From NCBI RefSeq assembly GCF_018420025.1, contig NZ_JAEDAM010000012.1:1-18697 (forward strand): a stretch of 18,697 nt of DNA, read 5' to 3'. The DNA comes from Candidatus Vampirococcus lugosii. GTDB lineage: Bacteria > Patescibacteriota > Gracilibacteria > Absconditabacterales > Absconditicoccaceae. A model generated the notes under the pieces. It was not told the origin of the DNA and made no database searches. It saw nothing but the letters and a program-made list of their open reading frames with translations. Positions within the stretch are counted from its first letter, which is position 1, and every line of letters starts with the position of its first letter. The translations under genes and the position numbers were made by a program. Shown here piece after piece: positions 4-18,546 of the stretch.

Positions 4-28
4 AAATCCTTGTCTAAATCAAGGATTT
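4..28 (-). terminator. Candidate operon-end hairpin just 3' of the cas6-like stop: perfect 9-bp inverted repeat AAATCCTTG-N7-CAAGGATTT
   Basis: The inverted repeat is read directly from the sequence and lies 13 nt beyond the stop at 41-43 on the minus strand. The downstream U-tract cannot be assessed because the window ends. Confidence 0.3.
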
Positions 29-40
29 AGAAATTTTGTT

Positions 41-646
41 CTACAAAGATGAGGTATAATACCAAACATATCAAACTAATCAAGATTTAAGATATTTTTT
101 TAATTTTAATTGTTTAGTCATAATTGAAAATTCTCATATATATATATATATATTATTTTTTAAAAAATTTTTAAATTTATTTTCATCATATCATATATTA
201 TATATTTTATTTAATTTTTGATATGTAGAAAAAATAAATTTATCAGGATTTGGTAAAGTATACAAAATATTTCTATTTCTAATAAATGTAGGACTTATAT
301 AATTTATTTTAAATTTTTTAAAATTAACAAAATTAATTTTTTCAATATCAAAAATGTCAAAATCAAAATTTATTTTTTCCAACTCAAATTTTTGTCAATT
401 GATACTAATATTTAAATTTCATTTTGATAATATTTTCTTAAGTATTTCAGAATAAGCATCTTGTCAATTAATTGTAAGTCTAATTTGTAAATGATTATAT
501 TTTATATAAGATATTTTCAAAATTGATTTATAAATTTTTTCATCGTCATCAAAAACATTAAGAATAGCACCCAAAAGATGATAATAATATTCTGTATTTC
601 ATATCTTTTGTAAAGCTTTAAAATTTAATTTTAATAAATATAACAT
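41..646 (-). CDS. cas6: Cas6-like RAMP, putative crRNA-processing endoribonuclease (201 aa, atypically short)
   Basis: Translated with TGA=Gly: MLYLLKLNFKALQKIGNTEYYYHLLGAILNVF...KINYISPTFIRNRNILYTLPNPDKFIFSTYQKLNKIY...KSGLVGYVWYYTSSL*. The layout resembles Cas6, and the gene is last in the csm operon, 14 nt after csm3. It is in frame with track ORF 191..382. No terminal GxGxxxxxGxG loop was found. Confidence 0.5.
136..153. repeat. (AT)9 dinucleotide microsatellite inside the cas6-like CDS
   Basis: 18 nt of perfect AT repeats, encoding IYIYI on the minus strand. Confidence 0.9.
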
Positions 647-660
647 ATTATTTAATTTTA

Positions 661-1281
661 TTAATTAGAAACTATTTCTATTCTTCAATTACCTCTACTT
701 CATCATCATCAAATATAAGTTTTTTGTAAATAATCAATTCATTTTACCAAAATATCTTCAAGCTCTTGTTGACTTATTCAATACTCTCATTCATGAGGTA
801 ATAAAATTATTTGTCATTCAAATTCTACTCAAGCAGGAACTCTTTCTATATGTCTTGGATTAGCAGTTCATTTCAAAAACCTTGGCACAGTATTTTCCGA
901 TTTATCTTCAAAAAAATCAGATTTCATACTTTCAAATTTTTCTTTCCATTCTTCACTAAGATAAAAATCTTCAAATATAATTCTAGAAGATATTTTATTA
1001 TCTTTGTTTGCCATTCAAAAAGCTTTTGAAACTTCAGTATTAATATCTTGTACAGGATTTCATTTTTCATCAATTTTATTAGAATAATCAATCATTTCTA
1101 TTAAACTTCTCATTTTTCATTTAATACTACTACCTGGAATATATGGACATCATGTTAAAGGATTTTTTATTACAGATGAATCTATTCATCAAATTTTAAG
1201 ACCTTGTTCTGATCATCATATATGTAAACCAGTTTTCAAAATTATTTTATATTTTTTAACAATAGGATTTAACATTTTCAT
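661..1281 (-). CDS. csm3: Csm3, the Cas7-family backbone/RNase subunit of the type III-A complex (206 aa)
   Basis: MKMLNPIVKKYKIILKTGLHIGGSEQGLKIGGIDSSVIKNPLTGCPYIPGSSIKGKMRSLIE...ENTVPRFLKGTANPRHIERVPAGVEFEG...YIGGGGSRGNGRIEIVSN*. These are canonical Csm3 motifs, including the Asp of GGID. The frame was verified codon by codon and the length is 621 nt. Confidence 0.9.
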
Positions 1282-1331
1282 ATTTTTTTATAATTTATTT
1301 ATTAAATATTTATTAAAATATTATTTAATTA

Positions 1332-3911
1332 TTATTTAACTATTAAATAATAATTTCAAGTATCTTCCAATAATTCTTTTAATTCTAATGAATCATAATC
1401 TATATCTTTTATCATATTATATATTTCATCAATACTATTTGCACTAATATTTCATTGTCTTGAATTATTTTCAAGTTCTGCTATGATAACAAATCATCAA
1501 TTTTCTACTCAACGAAGATTAAGTGAAATATAATAATAATTTTTTCAATCCAAAGGATCATTAGGTAAACTAGTTAAATATCTAGGAATAAGATAATCTT
1601 GTATTTCATTAATTTTAATCATTCAATCACTTTCTGGATAACTTCATATACTAGAATGATAGATTGCCAAAGCTGTTCAAACTTGTCATAAATGTGATAA
1701 TCTTGCACTATCTCTTTTAGGAGATAAATATTCATAAAAAATATCTTCTGATTCCAAATAATTATCTGGAAAATCTATATTTATATTATCTAAATCTTCA
1801 TAATCATAATTATATGACATATCAAAATTCATAGATTTTAATCATATATTTTCTCAATATAGAAATGCTATCATTCAATTCATTTCTTCTGATATATTTT
1901 CTATATCTATATTTATACTTAATTCATTAATATTTATTATTCATGAATAATCTATTTTCACTCAATTATAATTTGCAATTCATTCAAAATTTACTCATTC
2001 ATTTTCTTTAATATTTATATCAAAATCTATATAAAATAATTCTTCTTTTATTTTTCAAGAAATATTTATTTTGGATTTTTCTGAATGTAATTCTGATAAA
2101 TCTAATGATGTTTCAACATATGTTCTATAATCACCTAAATTTTGATTAAGATAATCTTGATCAATATAATTTTGATAATCTAATAATGCTCTTGAATTTG
2201 TATCTGTATAATTATCTTTATAATTAAATTCAATTTTATTATTTTCATAATAAAAACTATTTTGTAAATCTGTTGATTTTATATATTCAATTCAATTTTT
2301 TGATACTATAATTTCTGTATTTTCATCATCATAATTATATCTTTCATATAAAGAATATTTTCAATTTCCTATATCTTCAACTATTAAATAATAATTTTTA
2401 AAATCTCTTTGAAAATCATCTTTTTTAAAATCATCTTCATCTTCATTAATTAAATATAAAAAATCAATAAAATTTTGATTATATAAAAGTTTATATTTAT
2501 TATCTCATAATTTTTCATAAACTGTAAAAAGTTCTTTATTATTAAGATATTCATATATTTTTTCTTCTTTTTCATTTACTTCATCTATAATTTTTACAAA
2601 TTCTGACAACTCATATCCTATATTATTATATGCTACATTATTATAGAATTCTTCATTTTCAAATTTTATATATTTTCATAAATTTTCATTTATTTTTTCT
2701 TTTATAAGATTATACATTTCTTTTTCTTCACTATACAAAAATTGTTTTAATCAAGAATTCTTAAATTCATTAATTTTAAGATAAAAGTCATTTTTATTTT
2801 GTTTTATATCAATATCATTATTTAATGATACATTTTCTTCTAATAAATCAGTTTCAAGATTAGTATTAAGTTTTATATTTCAATCAATTAAATCTTTTGT
2901 TAAATCATAATTTAAAATATAATCTAAAATAGAATTTAACTTTATATAATTATCTCATTTTGCATCCAAATTTAAAGATAAATTTCATTTTTCTTTACCT
3001 ATACCAATAATTCTATCAGAATTTAATAAATTTTCATTATTACTTCTTATAATATTACTTATTTGTTTTGCATCTTTTGCAATACTTTGTTGAAATCATA
3101 AAATAACATCATCAAATTCTTTTAATCTATTATTATATTTTTCTTCATAAAAATCATTTTTTTGATTTTCTTCTTTTTGAATTTCTTCATTAAAATCATT
3201 AATAATATTATTAACTGTATCTTCACAAGTTTCTTTAATACAATAATCAATTTTTTCTTTTATTTTTTCATCTGTAATTCATACAAATGTTTCATCTCCA
3301 ATAATAGTAAAAGGAACTCATTCTATAACAACTCAAAGTTGTTCTGAAATTTTATTTATTAATTTTCAATTTTCAGAATTATACCAAATTTCAAATTTAT
3401 TTATATTAATTTTATCTTGATATTTTTCACTATTTTCTATATTTTCCCATATTTCATTTTGTTTACTACATGCTGGACATCCATCTCACCAAAAATAGTA
3501 AACTTGTATTGGTCATTTTTCTAATATATTTTTTTCAATTTCATCTTCAATTTCTATTTCTCATTTATTTTCAATTTTTATCTCTCATCATAAATAATTT
3601 ATTCTTTCAACAAATCATTCAATAGCAAAACTTATCATCATATAATCTAATTCCCGAAAATTTCTTTTTTGTTTCACTATTTCTAATTTAGAATAGAATT
3701 CATATAATAAATCTAAATTATTTGTATTTGATAAAACATTTGTTAATTGTTTTTTAAAGTCATCAAAAATATCTTTTTCTTCTTGATTAAGTTCTTTATA
3801 CAAATTATTTGTTATCTCTTTATTTTCTTGTATTATTTCTTGTATATTATTTGCAAAACTTCAATTTGTTAATGTTATAAGCATTATTATTAATATAATT
3901 ATTTTTTTCAT
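1332..3911 (-). CDS. Large secreted protein (859 aa) with an N-terminal signal peptide, a thioredoxin-fold CxxC domain and a C-terminal pilin/pseudopilin-like globular domain
   Basis: N-terminus is MKKIIILIIMLITLTNGSFA/NN. Thioredoxin-like segment is VYYFWGDGCPACSKQ...GVPFTIIGDETFVG, with CPAC at 3468-3479. The C-terminal segment RDSARLSHLGQVGTALAIYHSSIGSYPES...YLTSLPNDPLDGKNYYYISL resembles the core of type IV pilin/T2SS pseudopilin domains. It is in frame with track ORF 3615..3803 and is 2580 nt long. Confidence 0.75.
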
Positions 3912-3943
3912 TTCTTTTTCTTAGTTTATTAATTAAAAATGTA

Positions 3944-4417
3944 CTAATTTGCTTTTGGATTAAAATATTTATGATAAGCAACAAATACTTCCAAAAAATC
4001 TTTAAATTTTTGTTTATCATTTAATTCTTTATAAATTCATTTCAAAAACCTTAAAAATCATTCAGGAAGTAATTTTCTTGTTTCTTGATAACCAACTTTA
4101 GCAAACCATATTTGTATTTTAATATTTTTTTGATTTTCATCTCAAGCTCAATAAATTATATCATAATATGTATCATAAATTTTTCTAATTGATGAAGCAG
4201 ATTTTAGTTTTTCAAAAGAACTTGATACACTTTCAAATCTTTCCAAACTTAAAGAATTTATTAAATCATTTGAATCAAAATTATCTAAATAATTTTTCAT
4301 AAATATTGATTTATTATAATTGTATGATTTATTATAATTATTATTATATGTTTTATTATTTGAATTTTTATTATAAGAATTATTTCATTTGTCAGAATAT
4401 CATGGTATATATATCAT
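3944..4417 (-). CDS. csm2: Csm2, the Cas11 small subunit (157 aa; an alternative start at 4300 gives 118 aa)
   Basis: ...SASSIRKIYDTYYDIIYGAGDENQKNIKIQIWFAKVGYQETRKLLPEGFLRFLKGIYKELNDKQKFKDFLEVFVAYHKYFNPKAN*. This helical pattern and the C-terminal F..vaYhKy are typical of Csm2. The N-terminal 39 aa are low-complexity and N/Y/K-rich. Confidence 0.75.
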
Positions 4418-4445
4418 TTTTTAATTATTAGTTTAATATTTAAAA

Positions 4446-6941
4446 TTATATTTCTCTATTTTCATATATTTGATTTGTCATATTCATAAGTAGTTTATCA
4501 ATTTCTTTGATATTGTATTTAAATCAATTATCAAAACTATTTTTATCAATTTGTCATATAACTTTTTTTATGTTTTCTATCATTAATTTAGCATTATAAT
4601 TTTCTTTTACATTTTTATTTATAGAATAAATAATTTTTGCTCATAAATGAACTATTTTATATAATTCTTCTGGATTTTTAGAATTTTGACTTTCAAAAAA
4701 ATTTCTAATTTCCCAAAGATGATTATATATTCTATATTGTCCTGTGCTTTCCAATCATTCCCAATTGTTTTTGATAATATTAGTTAATTTAATTTCATTA
4801 ATATCACTTATTTTCATATTATCTTGATATATACAAACTCATCTATAAGATAATTTTTCTTCTTCAATAATATTTTTATTATTTAAATTAGATTTATAAT
4901 CTTGTTTTGCAGATTTTAATAAATTTTCTGTATCTTCATAAACTCTTTTGAATGGAGTTTTATTTTTGAATATACTAATTCATAAGCTAAAATGTAATTT
5001 ATCATTATTTGCAATAAATTTTTTGAAGCAATCTTGATAAATATCTGCAAAATTTAATCTATCTTTGAAAGGAAGAACAAAAATAAAATCGTCTCAACCA
5101 CTAAATACTGTATAGACATCAGGAAAAGTATTTTGTAATAATTCTTGAGTAAATTTTCCAAAAAACAATTCCATAAATCTACTAAATTGAACTAATCTAC
5201 TTACACTATAAATATCTTTAAATCAATGAGATAAAATAATACTCATATTATCAATATCTCCACAAATCATAGTAAGATAAGATCTATTTTTACTAGCAAG
5301 TTTATCAAAAGTTTTTACTTCATCTCATTGTATAGGTACATATAAATTTATTGATTTTCATATTAATAATTTATTTTTTTCTGATTTATCTATATTCCAA
5401 TCATTAAATAAAACTTTTAAACTTCATTTTCATTCAAAATCTAAATCAAAAACAAATTTATCATTTTCAATAAAATTTAAATATATACAATTATTTTTTA
5501 CTAATTTTTCACCAATTTCAATTTCTTTTTGACAATGTAAACAAATACTATTATCATAATCATTTTCATCATCGCTATTCGTGTAATTTATTCAACAATG
5601 TTTACACAAAACTTTTCAAGACACTTTTTGATAAGAAAAAATTTTTTGTAAATTTGAAACTGAATAAATACTTGTTTTATTTTGTGATAAATCATCAAAA
5701 AGTTCTTTGAAAGTATTATTAATATTATTTTTTATTTTAAAAATATTTTTTAATAAAACTTCTTTTTCTATAAGATTTATTTTTAAATCTGTATTATAAT
5801 TAAGAATAAAATAATTATTTATTTCATTTGCTATATCTTTAATACTAATCTTTTGATCTGCCAAAATTATAAATTTACCACCTGCATTTATAAGGACATT
5901 AGCAGGAGATAAATCTAATTTATTAATAATATAATGAATTACTGCTTCTGTAAGCATTTGTACTTTAAAAGATCTAGCTCTAAGTCTTTTTGAAAGTTTT
6001 GATTGATTTTTGATTCAATCAAAAATATATTTTTGTATACTAGGAAAATCTCAAGCTATAAGTTTTACTTTTTTTTCAAATACTTTATCTGTATCAGTAT
6101 TTTCTTTTTCATATTTGAAATCTTGGTATACAAATTTAGATTTGTAAAGAACATTTGCAATTGCAACTACAGTTTTGGTATGGTCATATAAAGAAATATC
6201 TCAAATACTTTTGTATGCATCACTTGGAACCATAGTAAAATAATTTTGTAATAATAATTCAAGTTTATATATAAATTCTTTAAATTCTTTATCAGAACTA
6301 TCATTATTTAAGTTTGATTCTGAAATTAAATTTTTTAAATCTTTTTGACAATTTTCATTAAGTTTTTTGAATCAATCACTTATATCTGTATTTCATATAT
6401 TTTTCATCAAATTTTGTAAATAAGCATCTTCAAAACTTCTTCCTTTATCCGTTGGAAAAAAAGATTTTATATTTAATTCTCATAAAGATTTTGGTAAATA
6501 AGTATATTTAGCTTTATTAGTTTTTGTATCTTTAAAAATATTTTCAAAAATACTTGTAAGTCATATATGTTTTATATTTTCATATTGTTTATCTGTAGCT
6601 GTTTCATCTATTCTATCTATTCTTTCATTTGAACTAATATTATCAGCCATATAAACTATCCAAGCTAAATTTTTTGTATTATCATTTTCAAAATTGTAGT
6701 TTTTCCAATCTCTTGCATGATGTAAAGATGCAATTAATCATATTTGTTTCCATAAATCATTAAAATCATTATCAAGCATAAACTCAAAAACTTGTTGAGC
6801 ATGAGCTATTTGATAAGGATTGAATCAATTTTTTGTTTTTGAATTTAAATTTCTATTCTGTCATCATCTTCGCATAAGTTTCCCTAAATCATGAAGATAA
6901 CTAGCTATTATTATTTTGTACAAATCTATATTTTTATTCAT
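4446..6941 (-). CDS. cas10: Cas10/Csm1 large subunit (831 aa) with HD nuclease and GGDD cyclase motifs intact
   Basis: MNKNIDLYKIIIASYLHDLGKL... (HD at 6888-6893), SLYDHTKTVVAIA, KLIAGDFPSIQKYIF, LRARSF, INAGGKF. Zinc finger is CKHCG...CLHCQ. Palm2 has LTMICGDIDNMS and VYTVFSGGDDFIFVLPF (GGDD at 5088-5099). It is in frame with track ORF 5616..5957 and is 2496 nt long. Confidence 0.92.
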
Positions 6942-6957
6942 TTATTTAAATATTAAT

Positions 6958-8139
6958 TTATTTAATTAAATCATTTATTATTTTTAATGTATTATCTTCT
7001 TTTTCAATTAATTTATCTAAATTTTTTAGATGTACTATAGGAACACCTAAAGTATCAAATAAGGCTTTTCCAATTCTATTTTTTAAATTATATGGTGATG
7101 TATATGATTCAATAAAATCATAAGCTTCATTAAACTCTCAATCAATATATTTTGATATCATATATCAGTATACATTTTTAGTTTCTTCTACATCAAAATG
7201 TGATATATCATCAATATCAATATCAATATAATTAATTGATACAATTTCTTCTTCAGAAATAACTTTTTCAATAGCATCATCAACAGTATTTTTGAACATA
7301 TTAAATTCCATTCTAAATGAATTTAAAAGACTCTCTTTATTAATTCTATTCTCTTTAACTATTGATTTTAATTCAATTAAATATTCTTCAGGTATATCAT
7401 ATGTATTAAGTAAAATCTCTATTGTATATATATTATTTTTAATATTCATAACACTAATTAAAATATTTATATATAAATTTGGAGAATCAAAAATAGTTTT
7501 TGAAAGATTATAAGCAATATCAATATATTTTAAGCAAGTTCAGTAATCTCAAATATGACAAGAATATATTGCAACTCCAAGTATATTTTTATTTAATTTT
7601 TTTACATTATCTTTAAGATAGATAATATCTGTATTAATATTTACTGATTTATCTAATTGAAAATGTTCGTAATCATTTAAAATATCATTAACTTCATAAA
7701 CAATTTTTTTAAATTCATCATCATTATAATAATAATCAAATATATTTTCATATTTTTTAATTCAATCTTTAATTATATTAGGTATTTCTTCATTTTCAAA
7801 AAGATTTTCATAATATTCATAATCAGGATTATAATCACCAAAATCATATCAAAAATATGAATTTTCATAAAAACTAAATATTTTTCAAGGTGTAAATCAA
7901 TCTTCACTATTATTATCTAAACTAAAAAGATCTCATTCTCATAATTCTAAAAAATACTCATTAATTACATAAAGTCAATTTTCTTCTTTAGGTAAATTTT
8001 CTACATAATTGACTAACTCAAGTTTAGAAGTATCATAATCAGGTATATTATGTGATCTATGAAGATAAATAAATCATACTATAAATAATAGTACTATAGA
8101 AACTATAAATACAAACAATATTTTTTTAAAAATTTTCAT
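6958..8139 (-). CDS. Membrane-anchored protein of unknown function (393 aa), located between csm4 and cas10
   Basis: MKIFKKILFVFIVSIVLLFIVGFIYLHRSHN... has a single N-terminal TM helix or signal anchor. The rest is acidic and Y/N-rich, with a possible TPR-like helix pair (LGVAIYSCHIGDYGTCLKYIDIAYNL). No RAMP, CARF or nuclease motif was recognised. It is in frame with track ORF 7165..7449, is 1182 nt long, starts 5 nt after the csm4 stop and ends 16 nt before the cas10 start. Confidence 0.7.
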
Positions 8140-8144
8140 TTTAT

Positions 8145-9059
8145 TTAAAATAAGTATCAAAAGTTAAAGCTATTTTCTATTTTATAATAAGTTCATTTAA
8201 GTTTTTCATTTGTGTAAATCAAAGATCATGGATATACAAAATTCATATTTCATTTAAATATATTTTTTTGTGTTGTTTTGGTATTTTTATTTTGTATATC
8301 TAAATTTGATTTATTAAGATCAAAAGTTTTTATTTCTTCTTGTGTTGGCAAATAATTATTTAATATATAATATATTCATTCTTTTTTCATATTTTCTATA
8401 TAATCAAATAATTCTTTTTCTTTATCGTTCAAATCCTCCAATAAGATAGTTTTTATTTTTCAATATCATATTGATTTATATTTCCCAAAACCAACAGTAT
8501 TAAATATAATTTGCATACTATTATAAAATTTTTGTCGCATATTTTCATCATATATTTTTATATACAAAACTATATTTTCATCAAAATAATTTATATTTTC
8601 CAATACATAAGGTGTAGTTTCTCATAAATTAAATCTTGTTGTAAAGTTTTTGAAATGTGAATTTATTTTATATGATGGAATATTTGATTTAAATTTATCT
8701 ACTAATTTTTTAAATTTTTCAAAATCATCTCACTGAAAAAAATAATCAAAAATATTTTTATCTATAGGAAAATATTTTATATTTTTATTTATTTTTCTAT
8801 TTGGTTCATTTTCCAAAATATTATCTAAACTTATATTGCTTCAAATTTTTAATTTAGGATTAAAATAAAAAGGTTTTGGTAAATATCATTCAAAAAATCA
8901 ATTACTAATCAAAAAAGGAGCATTTCAATTATTAAATTCTTGAAAAATATCTTTTAGATTATCAAAATCTAAAGCAAAAATATATCATAATATAGTATCT
9001 GATTCTAATTCAGTAGCAAAACCAGATTTAAAATTTAGTTTAATTTTTTTAATTTGCAT
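8145..9059 (-). CDS. csm4: Csm4, the Cas5-family RAMP that partners Cas10 (304 aa)
   Basis: MQIKKIKLNFKSGFATELESDTILGYIFAL...APFLISNGFFEGYLPKPF...NTVGFGKYKSIGYGKIK...YYILNNYLPTQEEI. These match the Csm4/Cmr3 hallmarks (sDTl, iSsaFP..lPKP, G-rich loop GxGxxxSxGyG). The frame was verified codon by codon to the TAA at 8145-8147. Confidence 0.8.
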
Positions 9060-9076
9060 ATTTAATTTATAATAAA

Positions 9077-10090
9077 TTATTTAAATTCTAATAAAAGCCA
9101 TCATACAGGATTTCAATTTTCATCAAGATATATACTTTTGTCTCAAACTCAAAATGTCCTAGAACTTTTATGATCCATTATTTTTAATCATTTTCTATGA
9201 TTAAATTTGTAAATATGGTCTTCCAAAATTTCTTCCCAAAATATTTTGTAAGACAAACTTTTTTTGAACATTCAAATTTTAATAGGATATTTTCATTGAT
9301 CATATAAATCATTTAACTTATCTATAAAATCAATTCTTATTCAAATATTATCTAAAATTTGTTCTTCTCTTGTTATCAAAATATTTGAATAATCTTTTAT
9401 TTTCTGAATAAAATCATCTCATAAAGAAATATTTTTTTCATTTGGATATATATCAATTTCTATATCAAACTCTCAAGAATTTATAGATTCCAATATTTGC
9501 CATATTCAATGTTCTTTACCTGTATTTGCTTTTTTATTTACTCATAATATTTTTTGAATATATTTTTCATAATTTTTTATTTTAACATCATTGAATCATA
9601 TAAAATTAAATAATTCATTATCTAATTGTTTATTTAGTGAATTAATATATTCTTTATTTTCTATATTTGAATAATCATTATAAAGTTTGTCATATAAAAA
9701 AACAGTCCTAAATATTCCTTTAAGAGTACTTCAAGGTATTATAGGAGTATTAGTAAATTTATCATAAATAAATTTTTTTATTTGTCATTGATTATTTTTT
9801 TCTTTTGCATTTTGTAAAACTTTGATAGCTTCTTTTTTAATTTCAATTCTTTCAATAATTTCAAAATTTGAAATATCGATTTTATCTTTTATTATTTCTA
9901 ATCTTTTAAAATCTCAAAATTGAATACAATTTAATACATCATTAAACTTTTCTTTATTATCAATTTTTTCCAACCAATTATTATTTACAACTAATAATTC
10001 ATTTCATCTTATAAAAAAATCAAATCTTTCATATAATTCTCAATTATTTATATTTATACTACTAAGTATAGAACAAGAAATTTTTTTCAT
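9077..10090 (-). CDS. csm5: Csm5-like Cas7-family RAMP (337 aa)
   Basis: MKKISCSILSSININNGELYERFDFFIRGNELLVVNNNWLEKI...TNTPIIPGSTLKGIFRTVFLY...SSRTFGVGDKSIYLDENGNPVGWLLLEFK*. It has the RAMP motif P.IPGS.lKG..R and a Csm5-type C-terminus (G..pvGW..l). Length is 1014 nt. Confidence 0.7.
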
Positions 10091-10121
10091 TTTTTAAAAT
10101 AAAAATTTTAAATATTAATAC

Positions 10122-10149
10122 ATTCTAATTTTTTTTTAAAAAAAGTCAA
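10122..10149 (-). promoter_or_regulatory. Candidate sigma70-type promoter of the csm operon: TTGACT-16 nt (T6 A9 T)-TAGAAT
   Basis: The minus strand reads TTGACTTTTTTTAAAAAAAAATTAGAAT, and the -10 box lies about 30 nt upstream of the csm5 ATG at 10090. A near-identical motif occurs at 15668. Confidence 0.45.
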
Positions 10150-10167
10150 AACAATTTTTATATTTAT

Positions 10168-10195
10168 TTGAATTTAATATTAATTTATCTATAAT
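10168..10195 (+). promoter_or_regulatory. Candidate promoter for csm6-cas1-cas2: TTGAAT-16 nt-TATAAT
   Basis: Hexamers read directly, 35 nt upstream of the ATG at 10231. Chance matches are common in AT-rich DNA. Confidence 0.35.
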
Positions 10196-10230
10196 ACTAT
10201 ATATTTATAATTAAATAATTTTTTAAAACA

Positions 10231-11565
10231 ATGAAAAAAGAAAAAGTATTATTAATATGGTCTTTTGGTACTTCTGATATTTACTTGGATGGTAAATTAA
10301 TAAGAGATAATTTTTTGTCAAAAACAAAAGATATTGCTAAAAATTTTGATACTTATTACAATGAAAAAAGAATTAATATGAGTATTTTAGAAAATTTTGT
10401 AAATGAATTTTATAATAATAAAGAAATAATTATTAAGTGAATTTTTACTGACCAAAATTGATTTGAGCAAGATACAATTTATTTACAAACAATTTTGATG
10501 AAATATATTCAAAAATGATCTATTTCATCAAAAATTAAATCTGCTAGAGAACATATAATTTTGGATGAAGCAAGAAGATTTGATATTATCAAAAATAAAT
10601 TAGATTCTTATTTAAAAAATATACCTACAAATATATTTGAAGAAATAATGATAAATAATACTTCTGGAACTAAATGACTTAGTTCTGCTTTACTTTTTTC
10701 ATCTTTATTGAATTTTGAATTATGAAAATTATCTTTTTATTATGGTGAACAAATAGATAAAGATACTTTATTTATGAAACAATCAAATATTATATATTTT
10801 GTACATAAACAAAATATTGATAATTTTTTGGAAAATAAAGATTTTGAATCTTGTATTTCTTATTTACAAAATAATAATTTAATCTCTTCTTTTAAAAAAG
10901 AATTTGATTATTCCAAATATATGTTTGCAAGAATTAATGCTGATTATGATAAATGTAAAGAAATTTATAAAAAATGAAATTTAGATTCCAAATTTGCAAT
11001 TACTAAAAATACTGTAAATAAAATACAAGAAATGATAAATTGAATAATTTTTACTTTTGATAAAAAAAGATTTATAGAATTTTTGGGTAGAATATATAAT
11101 TTTACTGATGTAGGACTTAGATTTTTTATAAATAAATTTTTTGAAACTGATTTTGAAAGTATTAAATACAAAGATTTACAAGATTTTGTACAAAAATATC
11201 CTGATTTGGAAAAATTTTTGAATAATTATAAAGTAAGATTTAATAATAAAGCTTCTTTTCTTAATTGGAATATAAAAAATTCAGATCATATGATAAAAGA
11301 AATATGATTTATAAATACTAAAGTAATGTTGTCATTACTTGATTTTATATCTACTAAAAATTGAGAATATAAAAAATATAAAGATTTTTTTGTGAGATTA
11401 GAAAAATTAAATGAATATAGAAACAATACTTTGATAGCTCATTGAATGAATCAAGTAAATGAAAAAATTATTTTTGAAAAATATTGATATGATACTATCA
11501 AAACTGATTTTATTGATTTATTGGAAAATATAGTTTGAAAAAATAAATTATGGATTGAGTTTTAA
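10231..11565 (+). CDS. csm6: CARF-HEPN ancillary ribonuclease, Csm6/Csx1 family (444 aa)
   Basis: The N-terminus KVLLIWSFGTSD and NNTSGTKGLSSALLF resemble the CARF beta1 strand and the tGGtK.m loop. The C-terminus EYRNNTLIAHG is a HEPN R-x6-H motif (R at 11419-11421, H at 11440-11442). It joins track ORFs 10231, 10774 and 11083, which share one frame, across TGA codons. Confidence 0.65.
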
Positions 11566-11587
11566 TTAAATTATAATACACATAAAA

Positions 11588-12595
11588 ATGTTTATATATC
11601 TTACCAAAAATTGACTTAATGTAAGCAAAAAATGATGAAAATTAATAATTTATGATATAAATGATGAAAATACACAAGAAACTCCTATTAGTTTGATAGA
11701 ATGAGTAGTAATATTTGGTAGAGTGCAACTTACAACAGATGTTATTAGAGAATTTTTGAAATGAAAAGTTCCAGTATTTTTCTTATCCAAACATTGATCA
11801 TATTTTGGAAAATTGGATAGTTTGGAACAAACTAATGTAGAATTATTATATAATCATATCAAAGCAAGTATGGATAGTGATATTTCGTTGAAATATTCAA
11901 AATCTATAATTTCATCAAAAATAAATAATAGTATTGTTATGTTGCAAAGATGGACAAGATTTAAAGAAATTTATTGATGTGAAAATAAAATACAAAAATT
12001 AAGAGATTTACAAAAAAATATTGCTGAATGTAATAATTTAGATTCTTTGAGATGATATGAATGAACTTGTGCAAGAATTTATTTTGAATGATTTGCAAAA
12101 TTTGTAAAAGAACCGTTCAAATTTGAATCAAGAAATCGCAGACCTCCGAAAGATCCAGTAAATGCAATGTTAAGTTTGTGATATACATTATTGGCACAAA
12201 CTATACAAATGATATTGGATATACAATGAGTTAATACTCAAATTTGATTTTTTCATCAACCAAAAGATTTAAGAACTTTATTAGTTTTGGATATGATGGA
12301 AATGTATAGAGCTTGGATAGTAGATGATATGATTTTGAAAATTATAGAAAATTGAAAAATTAAATTGGAAAATTTTCAAATAATTGAAGAAAATCCAAAA
12401 AGACCTGTTTTGTTAGATGATGATTGATTAAAAATTTTTCTTACAGAGTATTACAAAACTATATTTAAGTGAAAAGATGAAATGAGTATTCATAATACTA
12501 TGAAAAAACTTAAAACAATAGAAATAAATATAGAAGAATTTAAACAAACTTTAGTAAAAAAAACTTTTGATTATGAGGGTTTTAAGATTAAGTAA
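11588..12595 (+). CDS. cas1: Cas1 integrase (335 aa)
   Basis: MFIYLTKNGLNVSKKGGKLIIYD...LIEGVVIFGRVQLTTDVIREFLKGKVPVFFLSKHGSYFGKL...LRGYEGTCARIYFEGFAK...SRNRRPPKDPVNAMLSLGYTLL...GFFHQPKDLRTLLVLDMMEMYR. These are canonical Cas1 motifs, several with TGA-encoded Gly. Confidence 0.93.
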
Positions 12596-12602
12596 TGAAA
12601 AA

Positions 12603-12923
12603 ATGTATTTAAGTATAAGTTATGATATTAGCAATACTAAAGCAAGAAATAGAATAGTAAAATTGCTTGAAAGTTATGGTTTCAGAGTACAAAAATCAGT
12701 TTTTGAAGTGCAATTAAATGAAAGACAATTTAAAATTTTGAAAAAACAATTGCAAAAAATTTTGGATCGAGCCAAAAAACAATATCCAGAAGAACATAAT
12801 AATGTAGATTCTATAAAATTTTATGTATTGTCAAAAATTTGAGAATGAAGTTTGGATGGTAGAATAGATGGATTATGAAGTGGTTATGAAAAAATTTATT
12901 TTGAAGAATTTATGATAATATAA
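12603..12923 (+). CDS. cas2: Cas2 (106 aa; an alternative upstream start at 12567 overlaps cas1)
   Basis: MYLSISYDISNTKARNRIVKLLESYGFRVQKSVFEVQLNERQFKILKKQL...FYVLSKIGEGSLDGRIDGLGSGYEKIYFEEFMII*. This is the canonical Cas2 N-terminus, and the track ORF is extended through three TGA codons. Confidence 0.9.
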
Positions 12924-12943: not shown

Positions 12944-13270
12944 TTAATCAATCCAAAAAGTATTTGAACAATAATCACATTTGATGTATGATTCTTTTTT
13001 ACATTTTTTTTGAATTTTAGCTCAACAATTAGGACAAATAATATTATTTAATTTAGTATTATTTTGTTTTGATGATTTGGTAAAACATTTCAATACAATG
13101 TAAGGTGCTCAAAAAAGGGAACTAATAATTAATCGACCAAAAACAACTTCAATTTCAAATCCTTCTTGTCCTGAGATAAAGGCTATAAAAAATAATAAAG
13201 AAATAAATAAACAAATATAAAAAGGTATTTGTAAAATAATTAATATTGTATTTTTTATTTTTATTCACAT
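12944..13270 (-). CDS. Small membrane protein with a C-terminal zinc ribbon, paralog A (108 aa)
   Basis: MGIKIKNTILIILQIPFYICLFISLLFFIAFISGQEGFEIEVVFGRLIISSLFGAPYIVLKCF...ICPNCGAKIQKKCKKESYIKCDYCSNTFWID*. It has hydrophobic N-terminal helices and a CxxC...CxxC motif, and is 327 nt long. Confidence 0.55.
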
Positions 13271-13393: not shown

Positions 13394-13789
13394 TTAATCA
13401 ATCCAAAAAGTGCCTAAACAATAATCACATTTGAGATATGATTTATTTTTACATTTTTTGTGAATTTTAGCTCAACAATTAGGACAAATAATATTATTTA
13501 ATTTAATATTATTACTTAAATCAGTTTTATTACTTAAATCAGTTTTATTACTTAAATCAGTTTTATTACTTAAATCAGTTTTATTACTTAAATCAGTATT
13601 ATTACTTAAATCAGAATTATCATTTTTTAATGATTTTTTAGAATATTTCGATATAATGTAAGGTGTTCAAAACATGGAACATCGAATAATAATTGCCGAA
13701 ACAAATTCAAATATTCAATCTTCTTCTGACATATAGCCTATAAGAAATAATAAAAAAAAATGTATTAGTAATATAACTATAATTATCAT
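13394..13789 (-). CDS. Small membrane protein with a C-terminal zinc ribbon, paralog B (131 aa), with an internal hexapeptide repeat insertion
   Basis: MIIIVILLIHFFLLFLIGYMSEEDGIFEFVSAIIIRCSMFGTPYIISKY...NSDLSNNTDLSNKTDLSNKTDLSNKTDLSNKTDLSNNIKLNNIICPNCGAKIHKKCKNKSYLKCDYCLGTFWID*. Length is 396 nt. Confidence 0.55.
13511..13618. repeat. 18-bp tandem repeat x6 (attacttaaatcagtttt; the last two copies each carry 1-2 substitutions)
   Basis: Copies were counted directly at 13511, 13529, 13547, 13565, 13583 and 13601. The repeat is in frame within paralog B and absent from paralog A. Confidence 0.95.
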
Positions 13790-13939: not shown

Positions 13940-14129
13940 GATAAATAGTCTATTGTGTGATGTATTTTATTAGAAAAATAATAAAAAATGTCAAAAATTT
14001 CTCGGCATAGTTTAGAACTGGTGTTTCGTGCTGTTGGAGATGAGTTTTGAGAGAAAAAACAAAAAATTAAAAATTTTCTCGGAAAGCTATCTCAGATAGT
14101 AGTTCTAAACTGGTCGTAAAATTGTATCG
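13940..14129 (+). promoter_or_regulatory. CRISPR leader with a locally GC-enriched, repeat-rich core (13988-14129)
   Basis: It abuts the first repeat on the side opposite the degenerate terminal repeat. It contains a direct repeat AAAAATTTCTCGG / AAAAATTTTCTCGG (13993, 14069), an 11-bp perfect inverted repeat AGTTTAGAACT / AGTTCTAAACT (14009-14019, 14101-14111) and a small palindrome CTATCtcaGATAG (14087-14099). Confidence 0.6.
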
Positions 14130-15648
14130 GTAGACTAAAAGCTCGAAATTACGAGCATCGAAACAACAATTTTGATTTATAAACCATTATTTTTTTTTAA
14201 GTAGACTAAAAGCTCGAAATTACGAGCATCGAAACTCTCACTCCCAGATTGAAACCCAGGAGAAACTACTCGTAGACTAAAAGCTCGAAATTACGAGCAT
14301 CGAAACATAATCTCCTCTCCGGAGATTATAAACCCTTTTATTTCTATCAGTAGACTAAAAGCTCGAAATTACGAGCATCGAAACGGAGATTATAAAACTA
14401 TTAATTCATATTATATTTTTTTTCAGTAGACTAAAAGCTCGAAATTACGAGCATCGAAACAGTATTCTTCAAGTTTAAATGAGCTTTTTCAGTTTTCTGT
14501 AGACTAAAAGCTCGAAATTACGAGCATCGAAACCCTCTTCTAATCAATCTGTTTCATTTATGATAATCATATGTTTATTGTAGACTAAAAGCTCGAAATT
14601 ACGAGCATCGAAACTCAAACCCAAAATTATAAACAATTTCAAGTTCTTCTGTAGACTAAAAGCTCGAAATTACGAGCATCGAAACAATTTGAGGTTCATC
14701 AAATCCAAAATTGTTAATAATTTCAAGTAGACTAAAAGCTCGAAATTACGAGCATCGAAACTCAAGAATATCAGTGTTTAATTCAACTGAGCCAGTCCAT
14801 AGTAGACTAAAAGCTCGAAATTACGAGCATCGAAACCCAAGACATCAAGCAATTGAGTGCCTTCAAGCACCCAAGTAGACTAAAAGCTCGAAATTACGAG
14901 CATCGAAACTATCTGCTGCGACTTCAAAATAAAACACTAATTCTCTGTAGACTAAAAGCTCGAAATTACGAGCATCGAAACTTCACAAGTCTCTAGCCGC
15001 TTCCAGCATGTCGGAAGCGACTTCGTAGACTAAAAGCTCGAAATTACGAGCATCGAAACTGACCTTTGATTTATAAATCATTTATTGTTTTTAATATAGT
15101 AGACTAAAAGCTCGAAATTACGAGCATCGAAACTCTCATACCCGATTTTCTTCAGGTATAAGAAAAAATAGTAGACTAAAAGCTCGAAATTACGAGCATC
15201 GAAACCCTCTTCGGAGATTATAAAACTTTTTATTTCTATCGTAGACTAAAAGCTCGAAATTACGAGCATCGAAACTCTGAAGAGGAGGTTATAAATCATT
15301 TTATAATTATCTCTTTGTAGACTAAAAGCTCGAAATTACGAGCATCGAAACAAATAACAACTCTTCAACCTCTTCTACACCATCATTCTGTAGACTAAAA
15401 GCTCGAAATTACGAGCATCGAAACCAAAAGCTTTCTTTATTAATTTCAAAGCTTTTTTTGTTCTTTGTAGACTAAAAGCTCGAAATTACGAGCATCGAAA
15501 CTGGGGACACTTACTTTTATAAATCATTATTATATTTTTGTAGACTAAAAGCTCGAAATTACGAGCATCGAAACCGGTCTCGTCCAAAGACGAAGCCAAT
15601 AGCTTAATGACTTGTAGACTAAAAGCTCGAAATTACGAGCATCGAAAA
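14130..15648 (+). CRISPR. CRISPR array with 21 copies of the 35-nt repeat GTAGACTAAAAGCTCGAAATTACGAGCATCGAAAC and 20 spacers of 35-46 nt
   Basis: Repeat starts are 14130, 14201, 14272, 14350, 14426, 14499, 14580, 14651, 14727, 14802, 14875, 14947, 15025, 15099, 15171, 15241, 15317, 15390, 15467, 15540 and 15614. The repeat has an internal hairpin GCTCG-AAATTA-CGAGC and a 3' end ATCGAAAC, which is a type I/III-style 8-nt tag. The last repeat ends GAAAA, which sets the polarity. Confidence 0.97.
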
Positions 15649-15667
15649 AGATTAGATTAAATTTTAC

Positions 15668-15695
15668 TTGACTTTTTTAAAAAAAAATGTATATA
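15668..15695 (+). promoter_or_regulatory. Candidate promoter: TTGACT-16 nt (T5 A9 TG)-TATATA
   Basis: The sequence TTGACTTTTTTAAAAAAAAATGTATATA lies 20 nt after the last repeat and 39 nt before the ATG at 15734. It is near-identical to the csm operon promoter motif. Confidence 0.4.
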
Positions 15696-15733
15696 CAATA
15701 TACATTCAAAGCTAATTGTTATGGAGGCAAGAA

Positions 15734-15919
15734 ATGTTTTACAAAAAGAAAGATGTTTATGATATTTACAATTCAATCCAAGAAGAGACATTTATACAAA
15801 AAATACTTTTTTATGTATTTGTAATAGTGTCTCTTATGGTTTTGTTTTGTGGGTTTTCTTTTTTGGTGTTTCTTACACACTTTATAATAAAAATATTTAA
15901 TCATATGATTTTATCATAG
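15734..15919 (+). CDS. Small hydrophobic protein (61 aa, one TM helix), function unknown
   Basis: MFYKKKDVYDIYNSIQEETFIQKILFYVFVIVSLMVLFCGFSFLVFLTHFIIKIFNHMILS*. It is preceded by a strong SD (GGAGG, 6 nt upstream of the ATG) and followed by a strong terminator. The track ORF start at 15716 is less likely than 15734. Confidence 0.5.
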   Translation: MFYKKKDVYDIYNSIQEETFIQKILFYVFVIVSLMVLFCGFSFLVFLTHFIIKIFNHMILS

Positions 15920-15932
15920 ATTAATAAGTATT

Positions 15933-15965
15933 ACTCTCATGCGGATTTCCATGAGAGTTTTTTTA
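15933..15965 (+). terminator. Rho-independent terminator: 9-bp stem ACTCTCATG/CATGAGAGT, 8-nt loop, T7 tract
   Basis: Read directly from the sequence. It is the only obvious terminator downstream of the array, so it probably also ends the pre-crRNA transcript. Confidence 0.8.
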
Positions 15966-16083
15966 AATAAAAAATTAATTAAAAAAAATTAATTAAAAAT
16001 ATTAAATTAAATAATTTTTAATTAATCATAAAAAATCTCTAAATATTTTAAAACAAAAAAATAATTATTTATTATTTTTTAAA

Positions 16084-17340
16084 TTATACTGTAATATTAA
16101 AAGGATTTACTCACCAAAACCTTGCTAAATCCAAAAAGATTATATAAACTCATAAAGACATAAGTAAGACAAAAAATACTATATTAAAATAATTTTCTAT
16201 AACAAAATATTTTTCTGGATGAAATTTTCAAATTGATTGAATAATAACTCATACTGCTCTACCTCAATCTAATGCTGGGAAAGGTAAAATATTAAATATA
16301 GCTAATGCTAAACTTATAATACCTCCAAAAGCAATATATTGCCAAATAGAATTAGATAAAATCATTTCTCAAACTTTTACTGCTCATACAGGTCATGAAA
16401 GATTTTCTACAGCTTCTTTTGCTTGTTTTCAATCAAAAGTTAATAATTTTTGTCAAATATTTCATAATACATGAAAAGTAATTCTTGTTTGTGAAAATAT
16501 TTCACTGACTCAAGCTATAGATCATTCAATAAATCACATTTGTACGACTTGTAATTTATCAATAAATTCTTCTCATCTTATACTAGGAATAGGATATATT
16601 CAAAATTGACATAATTCATTATTTATATTAATATCTGAATAATCTATTATATTACCATCTCTAAGTATTTGCATTGATATATTTTTATTACATAATCATT
16701 CTTTTTTAAAATAATTAATATGTGAGTCTTTTTTAAAATAATGAGGAGAAAATTTTAATAAATTAATATCTTCTCAGTTTATTGATAAAATAATATCATT
16801 ATCTTGTATTCATACTTCTTCTGCAATTGTTCAAGTTGCCAAAAAAACTTCCAATTGAATACTCTCAATTCATCATTCAAAAAGATTATTTTCTTTTACA
16901 AATGTATAATCTGGCATTAAATAACTATTTGTATTTATTCATATTTCTCAATCTGGAATTATTCATATAGGTTGTATTCATTTCCAAAAAGCAACTGAAA
17001 AAAATAACCAAGCAAAAAATAGGTTAACTAAAACTCATCAAAATAAAATTAATAATTTTTTTCATAATGATTGAGTTATAAAACTATCTTTTGCATAAAA
17101 ACTTCATTCATCATCTGGATCTTCTCATTTCAACCTTACAAATCATCAAAGAGGTAATCGATTTATTGTATATTCTGTTCATGATTTATCAGTATATATT
17201 TTGAATGCTTTTGGAGGTATTCATAGTCAAAATTCCAAAACTTTTACTCAAGATTTTTTGGCAGCAATAAAATGTCATAATTCATGAACTATTACTAAAA
17301 ACATAAACAATAAAAATCATGCTATAATAGCTATCCACAT
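16084..17340 (-). CDS. rseP: RseP-type site-2 protease, M50 zinc metalloprotease (418 aa)
   Basis: MWIAIIAGFLLFMFLVIVHELGHFIAAKKSGVKVLEFGLGIPP...RLPLGGFVRLKGED...FNILPFPALDGGRAV. It has the HExxH and LDGG motifs with TGA-encoded Gly, and is 1257 nt long. Confidence 0.9.
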
Positions 17341-17892
17341 ATTTAATTTAAATTAAAATTATAAAAAACAATACAAAAAAATTTGTACTTAAATATATAT
17401 AAATATTTTTATATCATAATCAATATATATTTATTTTAAATAAAAATAATGTATAATAAATTTTATGAATTTAATTAATAGGTTGTAAGTTACTTAATTA
17501 CTACAATTCTCTTAATTTAACTTTTTAAGTCTTACTTTTTGTAATAAAAAAAGCAAACTTAATGAAATAATATATTATAAATATTAAATACAAGTATATA
17601 GTGTTATAATTGATCCAAAGATGTTAAAAAAAATCTTATTGAAAGATCATAAAAATCTGATAATTAAGAATTTCATATTCCTATATGACAATTTATCAAA
17701 AACAAAACTGATTTTTTTTGAAATTAATAAATTCAAATACAATATATATGTAAAGAAATTGATTAAATAAGACATTTTGAAAAATTACAAAAATCTTGAT
17801 TATATAATAAAACTATATTCTTCACTAAAGAGAAAAACACTTTTTTAAATTAAAATAATAAATTAAAATAATAAATTAAAATACAATTATTT

Positions 17893-18546
17893 TTACAATA
17901 TCTCATTCATTATTTTTTTTGTTATATCTTCTTTTTTCATCATTTCTCAATTTATAGTACAATCAATTTTTATCCAATCATCAAAAATATCTACAATTTC
18001 ATTTGCTGTTTTACAAGCATTTTTTATATGATTTATATCTTCTTCATGTATATCCATTTTTTTTCAATTTTTTATATAATTTCTATTTTCTTTTTTTAAA
18101 ACTAAATTTTGACTATTTTCAGGATTTATATTTAAAAATATAATTTTATCCGCTTTTGGTATTCCAAAAATTTCAAATTCAAGCTCATATAACCATTTTA
18201 TAAATTCTTTTACTTCTTCTGATTTTTTTATTTTACAAGCTTGATGAATCATATTTGCTGATACATATCTATTTGAAATTATATAATCATATTTTCCAAA
18301 ATCTTTAACTATTTCATTCATTGCATCATATCTATCTATTGCATAAAATATTGATGCTAATTTTGCAGAAACATTTTTTCAATATCATCAATTCAAATAC
18401 TTTTCTACAAAATATGCAGAATTATTACCATATCTAGGAAAATCAAGAATTAATACTTTTTTTCATTTATCTTTCAATTCTTTTTTTATTAAATCTACTT
18501 GAGTTTTTTTACCACTTCAATCTACACCATCAATAACTACAAACAT
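17893..18546 (-). CDS. tmk: Thymidylate kinase (217 aa)
   Basis: MFVVIDGVDGSGKKTQVDLIKKELKDKGKKVLILDFPRYGNNSAYFVEKYLNGGYG...ISNRYVSANMIHQA. It has the P-loop and the Tmk pattern, is in frame with track ORF 18064..18321, and is 654 nt long. Confidence 0.9.

Follow-up and report, generated by a model that had tools for sequence, protein, structure and literature searches.

Type III-A CRISPR systems with Csm6, such as those of Staphylococcus epidermidis and Streptococcus thermophilus, were taken as the described systems against which to set a locus of Candidatus Vampirococcus lugosii (phylum Absconditibacteriota). The locus lies on an 18,697-bp contig (20% GC) that was analysed over its entire length and is called the window below. 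As in those systems, a full set of subunits (Cas10 with HD and GGDD, Csm2 to Csm5, and Cas6) is encoded in the window, together with a CARF-HEPN Csm6, Cas1, Cas2 and adjacent 35-nt repeats ending in ...ATCGAAAC. Unlike those systems, csm5-csm4 precede cas10 rather than follow csm3, csm6-cas1-cas2 are inverted, the genes are written in genetic code 25, the effector operon is broken up by two non-Cas genes, and Csm4 and Csm5 are too divergent for Pfam or TIGRFAM thresholds. The two non-Cas genes are designated g6 (between csm4 and cas10) and g3 (between csm2 and csm3). The locus is probably a complete III-A (Csm/Csm6) system that acts in the canonical way and tolerates co-transcribed cargo, with g3 and g6 standing outside interference.

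A locus of class 1 type III with Cas1, Cas2, Csm3, Cas10 and 20 spacers was already described for this organism, attributed to recent horizontal gene transfer (HGT) from other phyla and suggested as a possible aid in breaking down host DNA that the cell imports (Moreira et al. 2021, PMC8080830); at the level of the locus, the feature is known from the literature since 2021. The two embedded genes are not discussed in the text of that paper, which also describes a heavy investment of V. lugosii in its cell surface (PMC8080830). Under translation table 11, one open reading frame (ORF) of >100 aa was found in the window, against 15 long ORFs under table 25 (UGA = Gly), which bears out the code-25 reading of an earlier note on this DNA. 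Eight of the 15 tiled 41-10090, all on the minus strand, in the order csm5, csm4, g6, cas10, csm2, g3, csm3, cas6. The co-directional packing given in the earlier note was recomputed and was exact (successive gaps of 17, 5, 16, 28, 32, 50 and 14 nt). TGA was found at conserved glycines (e.g., in the Cas10 GGDD and Csm3 GGGGSRG motifs) and made up 74-90% of Gly codons in the eight operon genes and 43-91% over all 15 genes. The identities that had been proposed for all six Cas genes were recovered with Pfam, TIGRFAM and PADLOC profiles under table 25 (Table 1), and the two genes described as encoding exported proteins each specify a product with one N-terminal hydrophobic segment.

The Csm2 small subunit separates III-A from III-B, and gene order is no defining criterion of subtype III-A. 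Cas10 with HD and GGDD, Csm2, Csm3, Csm4 and Csm5 were all found, and an array, Cas6 and a CARF effector are also present, as read from sequence only. The canonical order cas10-csm2-csm3-csm4-csm5 was not found in the V. lugosii operon; because order defines no subtype, membership in III-A stands. Cas10 carries Pfam palm2 and Csm1_B domains (PF22335 and PF18211 exceeded their cut-offs), and its HD motif (H17-D18) and GGDD cyclase motif (G615-G616-D617-D618) were both invariant in alignment with the Cas10 of a 'Gracilibacteria' relative (L002). Judging from intact motifs and family membership, the interference machinery would work as in any III-A system: Cas6 would process crRNAs, the Csm complex would bind target RNA and Csm3 would cleave that RNA, the Cas10 HD domain would cut DNA, and the GGDD motif would make cyclic oligoadenylate, which would activate the divergently encoded CARF-HEPN Csm6.

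Relatives were collected with a profile made from the window Cas10 and the first-found relative. About 20 Cas10 proteins were recovered (35-57% identity, E <= 1e-141), and beyond them lay a sharp gap to ordinary III-A Cas10s (<=28% identity). Neighbourhoods of eight clade members were re-translated in code 25 and compared with the window (nine loci in all; Table 1). The gene csm4 stood ahead of cas10 in 8/8 relatives, and csm5 was also first in 4/8, so that the csm5-csm4-first subclade consists of five loci (the window, L009, L002, L010 and L013). The closest relative was Candidatus Absconditicoccus praedator (L009; Cas10 57-59% identical), which shares with the window and other code-25 loci of the candidate phyla radiation (CPR) both the clade and a csm5-csm4-cas10-csm2-csm3-cas6 backbone, and in which csm4-cas10 and csm2-csm3 are contiguous. 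Unlike the window, A. praedator lacks g6 and g3, has a GIY-YIG gene between csm3 and cas6 (13984-14265), is flanked by IS1595-family transposases (7203-7868 and 20154-20849) and has co-directional csm6-cas1-cas2. Neighbour-joining trees of Cas10, Csm3, Csm4 and Csm5 gave the sister pairs (window, L009) and (L002, L010), the Cas10 proteins of the second pair being 74% identical. Csm4 had no Pfam match and was recognised by the PADLOC profile alone, and across 8/8 relatives it shared 40-48% identity with the product of the gene ahead of cas10; Csm5 was 58% identical to that of A. praedator and scored under the cut-off of TIGR01899 (1.1e-6, 28.4 bits; cut-off 38.3). Both are thus divergent yet recognisable.

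Because csm4-before-cas10 is universal in the clade and csm5-csm4-first marks the subclade, the order reads as an inherited clade layout, not a local rearrangement. The earlier note had called it scrambled; it does depart from canonical III-A, but it is not a one-off and is standard in the code-25 CPR Cas10 clade. This III-A clade appears to be restricted to UGA=Gly CPR bacteria (Absconditabacteria/Gracilibacteria). Among the loci sampled, csm6-cas1-cas2 (10231-12923, plus strand) were inverted relative to the effector operon only in V. lugosii and were co-directional and downstream of cas6 wherever recovered (L002, L009, L014, L015 and L016). The published inference of recent HGT is weakened, because the clade exists, codon usage is native and a thymidylate kinase gene lies nearby in three members. 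That gene was found no more than a few kb away from the type III genes in the window (17893-18546), L014 (7488-8162) and L016 (2725-3402), with 42-43% identity, and the neighbourhood hints at a conserved chromosomal context and at vertical inheritance rather than HGT.

A single-sequence Cas10 scan of the genome contig collection and a Csm5 alignment scan of the metagenome contig collection returned nothing. A Logan contig (L001) that looked like a 97%-identical relative with both inserts was rejected: at the DNA level it matches window 1579-8579 with 100% identity, and its proteins differ by 3% only through UGA being read as Trp. L003 was likewise identical at the DNA level to part of L002, and L006 to most of L005, a contig carrying a g6 homologue. 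These three contigs being identical DNA, there was no population variation for dN/dS.

In composition g3 and g6 match the cas genes (TGA 75-84% of Gly codons; G+C at third codon positions 4-5%), which argues that they are long-resident code-25 genes. Most Cas proteins are basic, and both g3 and g6 are acidic (pI 4.4-4.5). No flanking repeats were noticed around either, and neither is a recognisable mobile-element gene. Both products are predicted to be extracytoplasmic. Searches with Pfam, NCBIfam, PADLOC and PHROGs gave no CARF, SAVED, other sensor or nuclease domain in g3 or g6; the suggestion that they are membrane- or envelope-linked accessory effectors was not upheld, no nucleotide-sensing or Cas-interacting domain being detectable. 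It is scarcely credible that they are annotation artefacts or decaying pseudogenes brought about by reading UGA as sense. No curated family matched either one, but their ORFs run uninterrupted for 393 and 859 codons in DNA of 18% GC, UGA falls at conserved Gly across the cassette with the codon usage of neighbouring genes, and homologues at 36-45% identity effectively refute such a reading.

The g6 product has a transmembrane (TM) segment at residues 1-30, no other hydrophobic segment and a pI of 4.47, and no family match was obtained in Pfam, NCBIfam, PADLOC or PHROGs. A word-indexed search of 5.8 billion proteins turned up nothing but g6 itself and a version of it mistranslated with UGA=Trp, which came from the same sequencing run. 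When 1.84 billion representatives were searched exhaustively with phmmer, three homologues emerged, P0005 (809 aa), P0006 (614 aa) and P0007 (494 aa), in each of which the g6-like domain is preceded by at least one TM helix; a Cys pair (C194/C202) is invariant in the family. P0005, a paralogue of g6 within V. lugosii, was 36% identical over g6 residues 21-374 and came from V. lugosii sequencing runs (contig of 18.8% GC). No cas genes were found beside the homologues (0/3 neighbourhoods), and no g6 was found in the related type III-A loci (0/8), where csm4 and cas10 are spaced by -1 to 12 nt (8/8); a gene lies at that junction in the window only. Because its homologues lie outside CRISPR loci and 8/8 relatives are without it, g6 is best taken, on this distribution, as a lineage-specific insertion, a copy of a paralogous membrane-protein gene and a passenger. 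The earlier note had allowed for a passenger gene, which holds for g6; its alternative of g6 as an accessory effector is contradicted both by the contiguous csm4-cas10 of A. praedator and by the non-CRISPR homologues.

The gene for P0005 occupies 575-3004 of contig L005 (run SRR13241708) and adjoins an M20 peptidase gene. In its product the g6-like domain comes after a second hydrophobic segment, and the N-terminal half (~430 aa) is beta-rich and unrelated to g6. The idea that this N-terminal half is g3-like, in the manner of a Rosetta stone, was rejected (blastp E > 1; hhalign probability 0.2%). An AlphaFold model of g6 from four sequences had a predicted local distance difference test (pLDDT) score of 45.3, too low for the model to be of use, and Foldseek matched it to generic helical repeats only (best E = 0.48).

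The position of g6 directly between csm4 and cas10, whose products form the base of the complex, with gaps of 5 and 16 nt, would suit a role for g6 and g3 in tethering or localising the Csm complex at the membrane as structural partners of Cas10/Csm4, and membrane anchoring has been proposed for other TM proteins linked to type III (bioRxiv 10.1101/270033). Such a role is nevertheless very improbable. The gene g6 occurs in 1/9 loci only and P0005 to P0007 are never cas-linked; 8/8 relatives couple csm4 and cas10 directly; in g3 and g6 alike, a positively charged N-terminus and a single hydrophobic segment, with the bulk of the protein after it, predict an outside location, which the g6 Cys pair and the CxxC thioredoxin motif of g3 also fit.

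The g3 product has a signal-peptide-like N-terminus (MKKIIILIIMLITLTNGSFA; hydrophobic segment 1-23, no other) and a pI of 4.38. It is laid out as a helical N-region to residue 118, an insert (~119-250), a core (252-725) and a C-terminal domain (~730-859), with cysteines only at 145/148/224/229. The insert may be thioredoxin-like over residues ~119-235 (C145-P-A-C148 present; Thioredoxin_2 PF13098, E 5e-5, 24.0 bits against a gathering cut-off of 27). The C-terminal domain gave a sub-threshold match to the globular part only of the type II secretion system (T2SS) protein G family (T2SSG PF08334; 15.4 bits, E 0.02, cut-off 21); no prepilin motif was found ahead of it, and the C-terminal domain had no meaningful sequence match in the PDB. 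The conserved core had no match in Pfam, NCBIfam, PADLOC or PHROGs. Only one homologue was detectable, P0004 (717 aa); its gene fills the csm2|csm3 slot in L002, flanked by gaps of 27 and 30 nt. Read in code 25, the two are 44% identical over residues 1-118 and 45% over a coiled-coil and beta-rich core (221-725), and P0004 is without the thioredoxin-like insert and the pilin-like C-terminal domain. An alignment scan with g3 of the genome contig collection found only L002 again. A tblastn search of IMG/VR viral contigs and GenBank phages found nothing in narrow scans, and an alignment scan of JGI metagenome contigs, with poor patterns drawn mainly from the signal peptide, found nothing either. 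The AlphaFold (AF2) model from a two-sequence alignment was unusable (pLDDT 33.7).

No g3 was found in 7/8 relatives, among them the sister locus of each carrier (L009 and L010), and in L010 exactly the same csm2|csm3 slot is filled by a Fic-domain gene (8535-9257; PF02661, 4.9e-18). The simplest history places g3 in the common ancestor of the window, L009, L002 and L010, from which it would have been lost once and replaced once; otherwise the gene would have been gained twice at the same junction. Under either history the Csm system does without g3, since A. praedator is without it and a Fic gene stands in its place in L010. Recurrent linkage of the inserts to cas10 across lineages, a check proposed in the earlier note, was not found overall: g6 was found in 0/8 relatives and had 0/3 cas-linked homologues, and g3 was found in 1/8, but with 2/2 family members linked (n=2). 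For g3 the passenger alternative fared unevenly, favoured by the 7/8 loci without g3 and the Fic gene in its slot, disfavoured by retention of the same slot in L002.

Several points weigh against g3 as cargo and lend themselves to a different account. The only detectable homologue of g3 also sits within a type III-A operon and at the identical junction. The divergence of its core between window and L002 (45% identity) is about that of Cas10 (45-47%), Csm4 (42-44%) and Csm6 (42%), a pattern that a co-evolving accessory gene would show and one that fits co-inheritance. Both copies are intact ORFs of 2.1-2.6 kb despite frequent TAA/TAG, so selection is judged to maintain g3 for a function of some kind. 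Links between type III systems and membranes have been noted before (bioRxiv 10.1101/270033). The sample is small (nine loci, two g3 genes), and the homology search for g3 was word-limited, with 8000 candidates scored, so that relatives outside or inside CRISPR loci may be missed. Finally, the cargo account assumes read-through, and co-transcription of g3 and g6 with the cas genes is plausible.

Instead of cargo, g3 might be a genuine CRISPR-linked envelope accessory, co-expressed with the Csm complex and adding to defence at the cell surface; it could, for instance, hide or alter a pilus or receptor that phages use, or control DNA entry, with swappable outer domains as the mark of an arms race. 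Its location between csm2 and csm3 in 2/2 family members, a core as similar between these loci as Cas10 and Csm4 are, and its modular build (1-118 and 252-725 conserved, insert and C-terminal domain lineage-specific) would agree with this, as would the weak T2SS-G/pilin-like C-terminus, the CPAC thioredoxin motif in the insert and the recruitment of membrane proteins by type III loci (bioRxiv 10.1101/270033). We nevertheless regard it as unlikely, though the main rival to the cargo reading: 7/8 relatives and the sister of each carrier lack g3 while their systems are still complete, an unrelated Fic gene fills the slot in L010, g3 has no cyclic oligoadenylate or SAM-AMP sensor domain and no cytoplasmic part beyond the signal peptide, and the L002 copy is without the thioredoxin and pilin-like modules (n=2). 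It is distinctly doubtful that the g3 family is an unrecognised CRISPR-linked, modular secreted surface protein that diverges in step with Cas10 and couples an envelope function (a block on phage adsorption, on entry by way of pili or on DNA uptake, for instance) to Csm expression, with csm2|csm3 as a dedicated slot for interchangeable accessories (g3 in two loci, Fic in another).

A further account would have g3 serve a type IV pilus or competence apparatus while Csm processes imported host nucleic acid in a predator. It draws on the ComEA gene placed in the locus as Vamp_21_186 (cas2 being Vamp_21_166) and on the idea that CRISPR degrades imported DNA (Moreira et al. 2021, PMC8080830), as well as on the weak resemblance of the g3 C-terminus to T2SS protein G and pilins. 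By gene numbering, however, ComEA falls past cas2 and so corresponds to neither of the two embedded genes; profile searches gave no helix-hairpin-helix or ComEA match in any window ORF scanned; the pilin-like match is sub-threshold and the domain is missing from the L002 homologue; and A. praedator, likewise a predator, has no g3. We consider this account improbable. The ComEA gene of the paper may lie somewhere between cas2 and ~15649-16083.

Preference is accordingly given to the cargo reading, in which g6 and g3 would sit at intergenic positions that tolerate insertion and be transcribed by read-through from the promoter of the operon, the genome being compact and poor in promoters. The gene g6 would be a recent, V. 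lugosii-specific arrival and g3 an older one, which probably already occupied the csm2|csm3 slot in the ancestor of the V. lugosii and L002 subclades and was later lost in A. praedator and replaced by Fic in L010. Their products would go to the membrane or cell surface. Transcription signals added little. Promoter-like hexamer pairs numbered 127 in the window against 134 expected by chance from shuffled sequence, which is uninformative at 20% GC about the single convincing promoter that the earlier note saw upstream of csm5, and the top-scoring site of that scan fell inside g6. Between csm5 and csm6 the pairs were TTGACT-16-TAGAAT (10149->10122, minus strand) and TTGAAT-16-TATAAT (10168-10195, plus strand). 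No terminator-like site was found within the operon in the signal scan. The hairpin at 4-28 is a possible operon terminator, to judge by its position; any T-run would fall beyond the contig.

Table 1. Features of the window, with positions in the window, and gene order of the related loci.
Feature	Position	Strand	Description and evidence
Hairpin	4-28	-	AAATCCTTG-7 nt-CAAGGATTT, just downstream of the cas6 stop; read from sequence
cas6	41-646	-	201 aa; weak: PADLOC Cas6 6.9e-6; PF10040 7e-4
csm3	661-1281	-	206 aa, backbone RNase subunit; TIGR02582 1.2e-54, 185 bits (cut-off 90)
g3	1332-3911	-	859 aa, acidic, predicted secreted or anchored, modular (MBS8121729.1)
csm2	3944-4417	-	157 aa, small subunit; PF03750 5.5e-9, 37.2 bits (cut-off 24.8); PADLOC 8e-10
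cas10/csm1	4446-6941	-	831 aa; TIGR02578 2.2e-124, 416.8 bits (cut-off 170)
g6	6958-8139	-	393 aa, acidic, mostly helical, one N-terminal TM helix (MBS8121717.1)
csm4	8145-9059	-	304 aa; PADLOC Csm4 1.5e-22
csm5	9077-10090	-	337 aa, first operon gene; PADLOC Csm5 1.8e-11
Divergent intergenic region csm5 (-) / csm6 (+)	10091-10230		promoter-like hexamers both ways; consensus matches only
csm6/csx1-type gene	10231-11565	+	CARF-HEPN ancillary RNase, 444 aa; PADLOC Csx1 1.3e-18, CARF-HEPN 2.5e-12
cas1	11588-12595	+	83% identity to A. praedator Cas1
cas2	12573-12923	+	86% identity to A. praedator Cas2
CRISPR array	14130-15648	+	21 copies of 35-nt repeat GTAGACTAAAAGCTCGAAATTACGAGCATCGAAAC
L009, Ca. 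Absconditicoccus praedator (CP054059.1)			csm5-csm4-cas10-csm2-csm3-[GIY-YIG]-cas6-csm6-...-cas1-cas2
L002, 'Gracilibacteria' metagenome-assembled genome (JASMTN010000025.1)			csm5-csm4-cas10-csm2-[g3 homologue]-csm3-cas6-csm6-cas1-cas2
L010, metagenome contig (ENA)			csm5-csm4-cas10-csm2-[Fic]-csm3-cas6
L013, Logan assembly contig			csm5-csm4-cas10-csm2-csm3...
L011, L014, L015, metagenome contigs (ENA, Logan)			csm4-cas10-csm2-csm3-csm5-cas6...
L016, metagenome contig (JGI)			csm4-cas10-csm2-csm3-cas6... (no csm5 match)

The remaining gene products were compared chiefly with those of A. praedator, to whose orthologues Cas6 is 57% and Csm6 74% identical, and whose Cas1 and Cas2 carry the Pfam Cas1 and Cas2 domains. 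In alignment with five relatives, Cas6 ends 35-40 residues early and is without the C-terminal glycine-rich loop (F.G.G....LG.G.V) conserved in them. After its stop codon come the 9-bp hairpin and, at 40 nt, the end of the contig; the short Cas6 could be a real truncation, or an artefact of the contig end or of multiple displacement amplification.

Between cas2 and the array lie genes for two paralogous small proteins (12944-13270 and 13394-13789, both minus strand), each of which combines TM helices at its N-terminus with a zinc-ribbon (CxxC...CxxC) at its C-terminus. Within the second gene, at 13509-13614, an 18-nt unit is repeated perfectly in tandem (5.9 copies) and encodes DLSNKT repeats. 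The repeat of L011 (array 15590-18423) differs from the window repeat at 7-8/35 positions, and repeats of other loci showed no recognisable similarity to it at <=8 mismatches. Past the last, degenerate repeat (15649-16083) there is a 67-codon ORF with a TM segment (15716-15919, plus strand), and near 15950 a G+C-rich hairpin (TCTCATGCGGATTTCCATGAGAG) is followed by a T-run.

Known membrane effectors of type III systems have a cytoplasmic sensor (CARF, SAVED or SAM-AMP-binding) and are met with repeatedly, at many loci. The Cam1, Csx23 and CorA papers are reportedly concerned with membrane proteins of type III loci. Like CorA, Cam1, Csx23 and TM-CARF/Lon, g3 and g6 are proteins with a TM segment encoded in a type III locus; unlike them, they lack any detectable sensor and their predicted location is almost wholly extracytoplasmic, and g6 is never cas-recurrent. 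As with passenger genes in defence operons (GIY-YIG, Fic/Doc, insertion sequences), sister loci hold unrelated small genes at inter-subunit junctions, which fits a tolerance of these junctions for insertions. Unlike selfish or passenger elements, g3 and g6 are not recognisable mobile genes, and g3 has persisted through ~55% sequence divergence.

The locus is thus exotic only in isolation: it holds a standard Csm/Csm6 system, arranged as is usual in UGA=Gly CPR bacteria. The 2021 description notwithstanding, clear CPR relatives are now known, more genomes having appeared. Junctions of the effector operon can hold unrelated genes (membrane, secreted, Fic, GIY-YIG) without loss of the system, which bears on automated Cas typing and on 'guilt by association' predictions in tiny, promoter-poor genomes. 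The gene g3 is an intriguing, thinly sampled orphan. If it did act in the envelope as a CRISPR-linked accessory, its family would be the first outside the cytoplasm to be linked specifically with type III CRISPR, and would hint at coordinated surface and intracellular defence in epibiotic predators.

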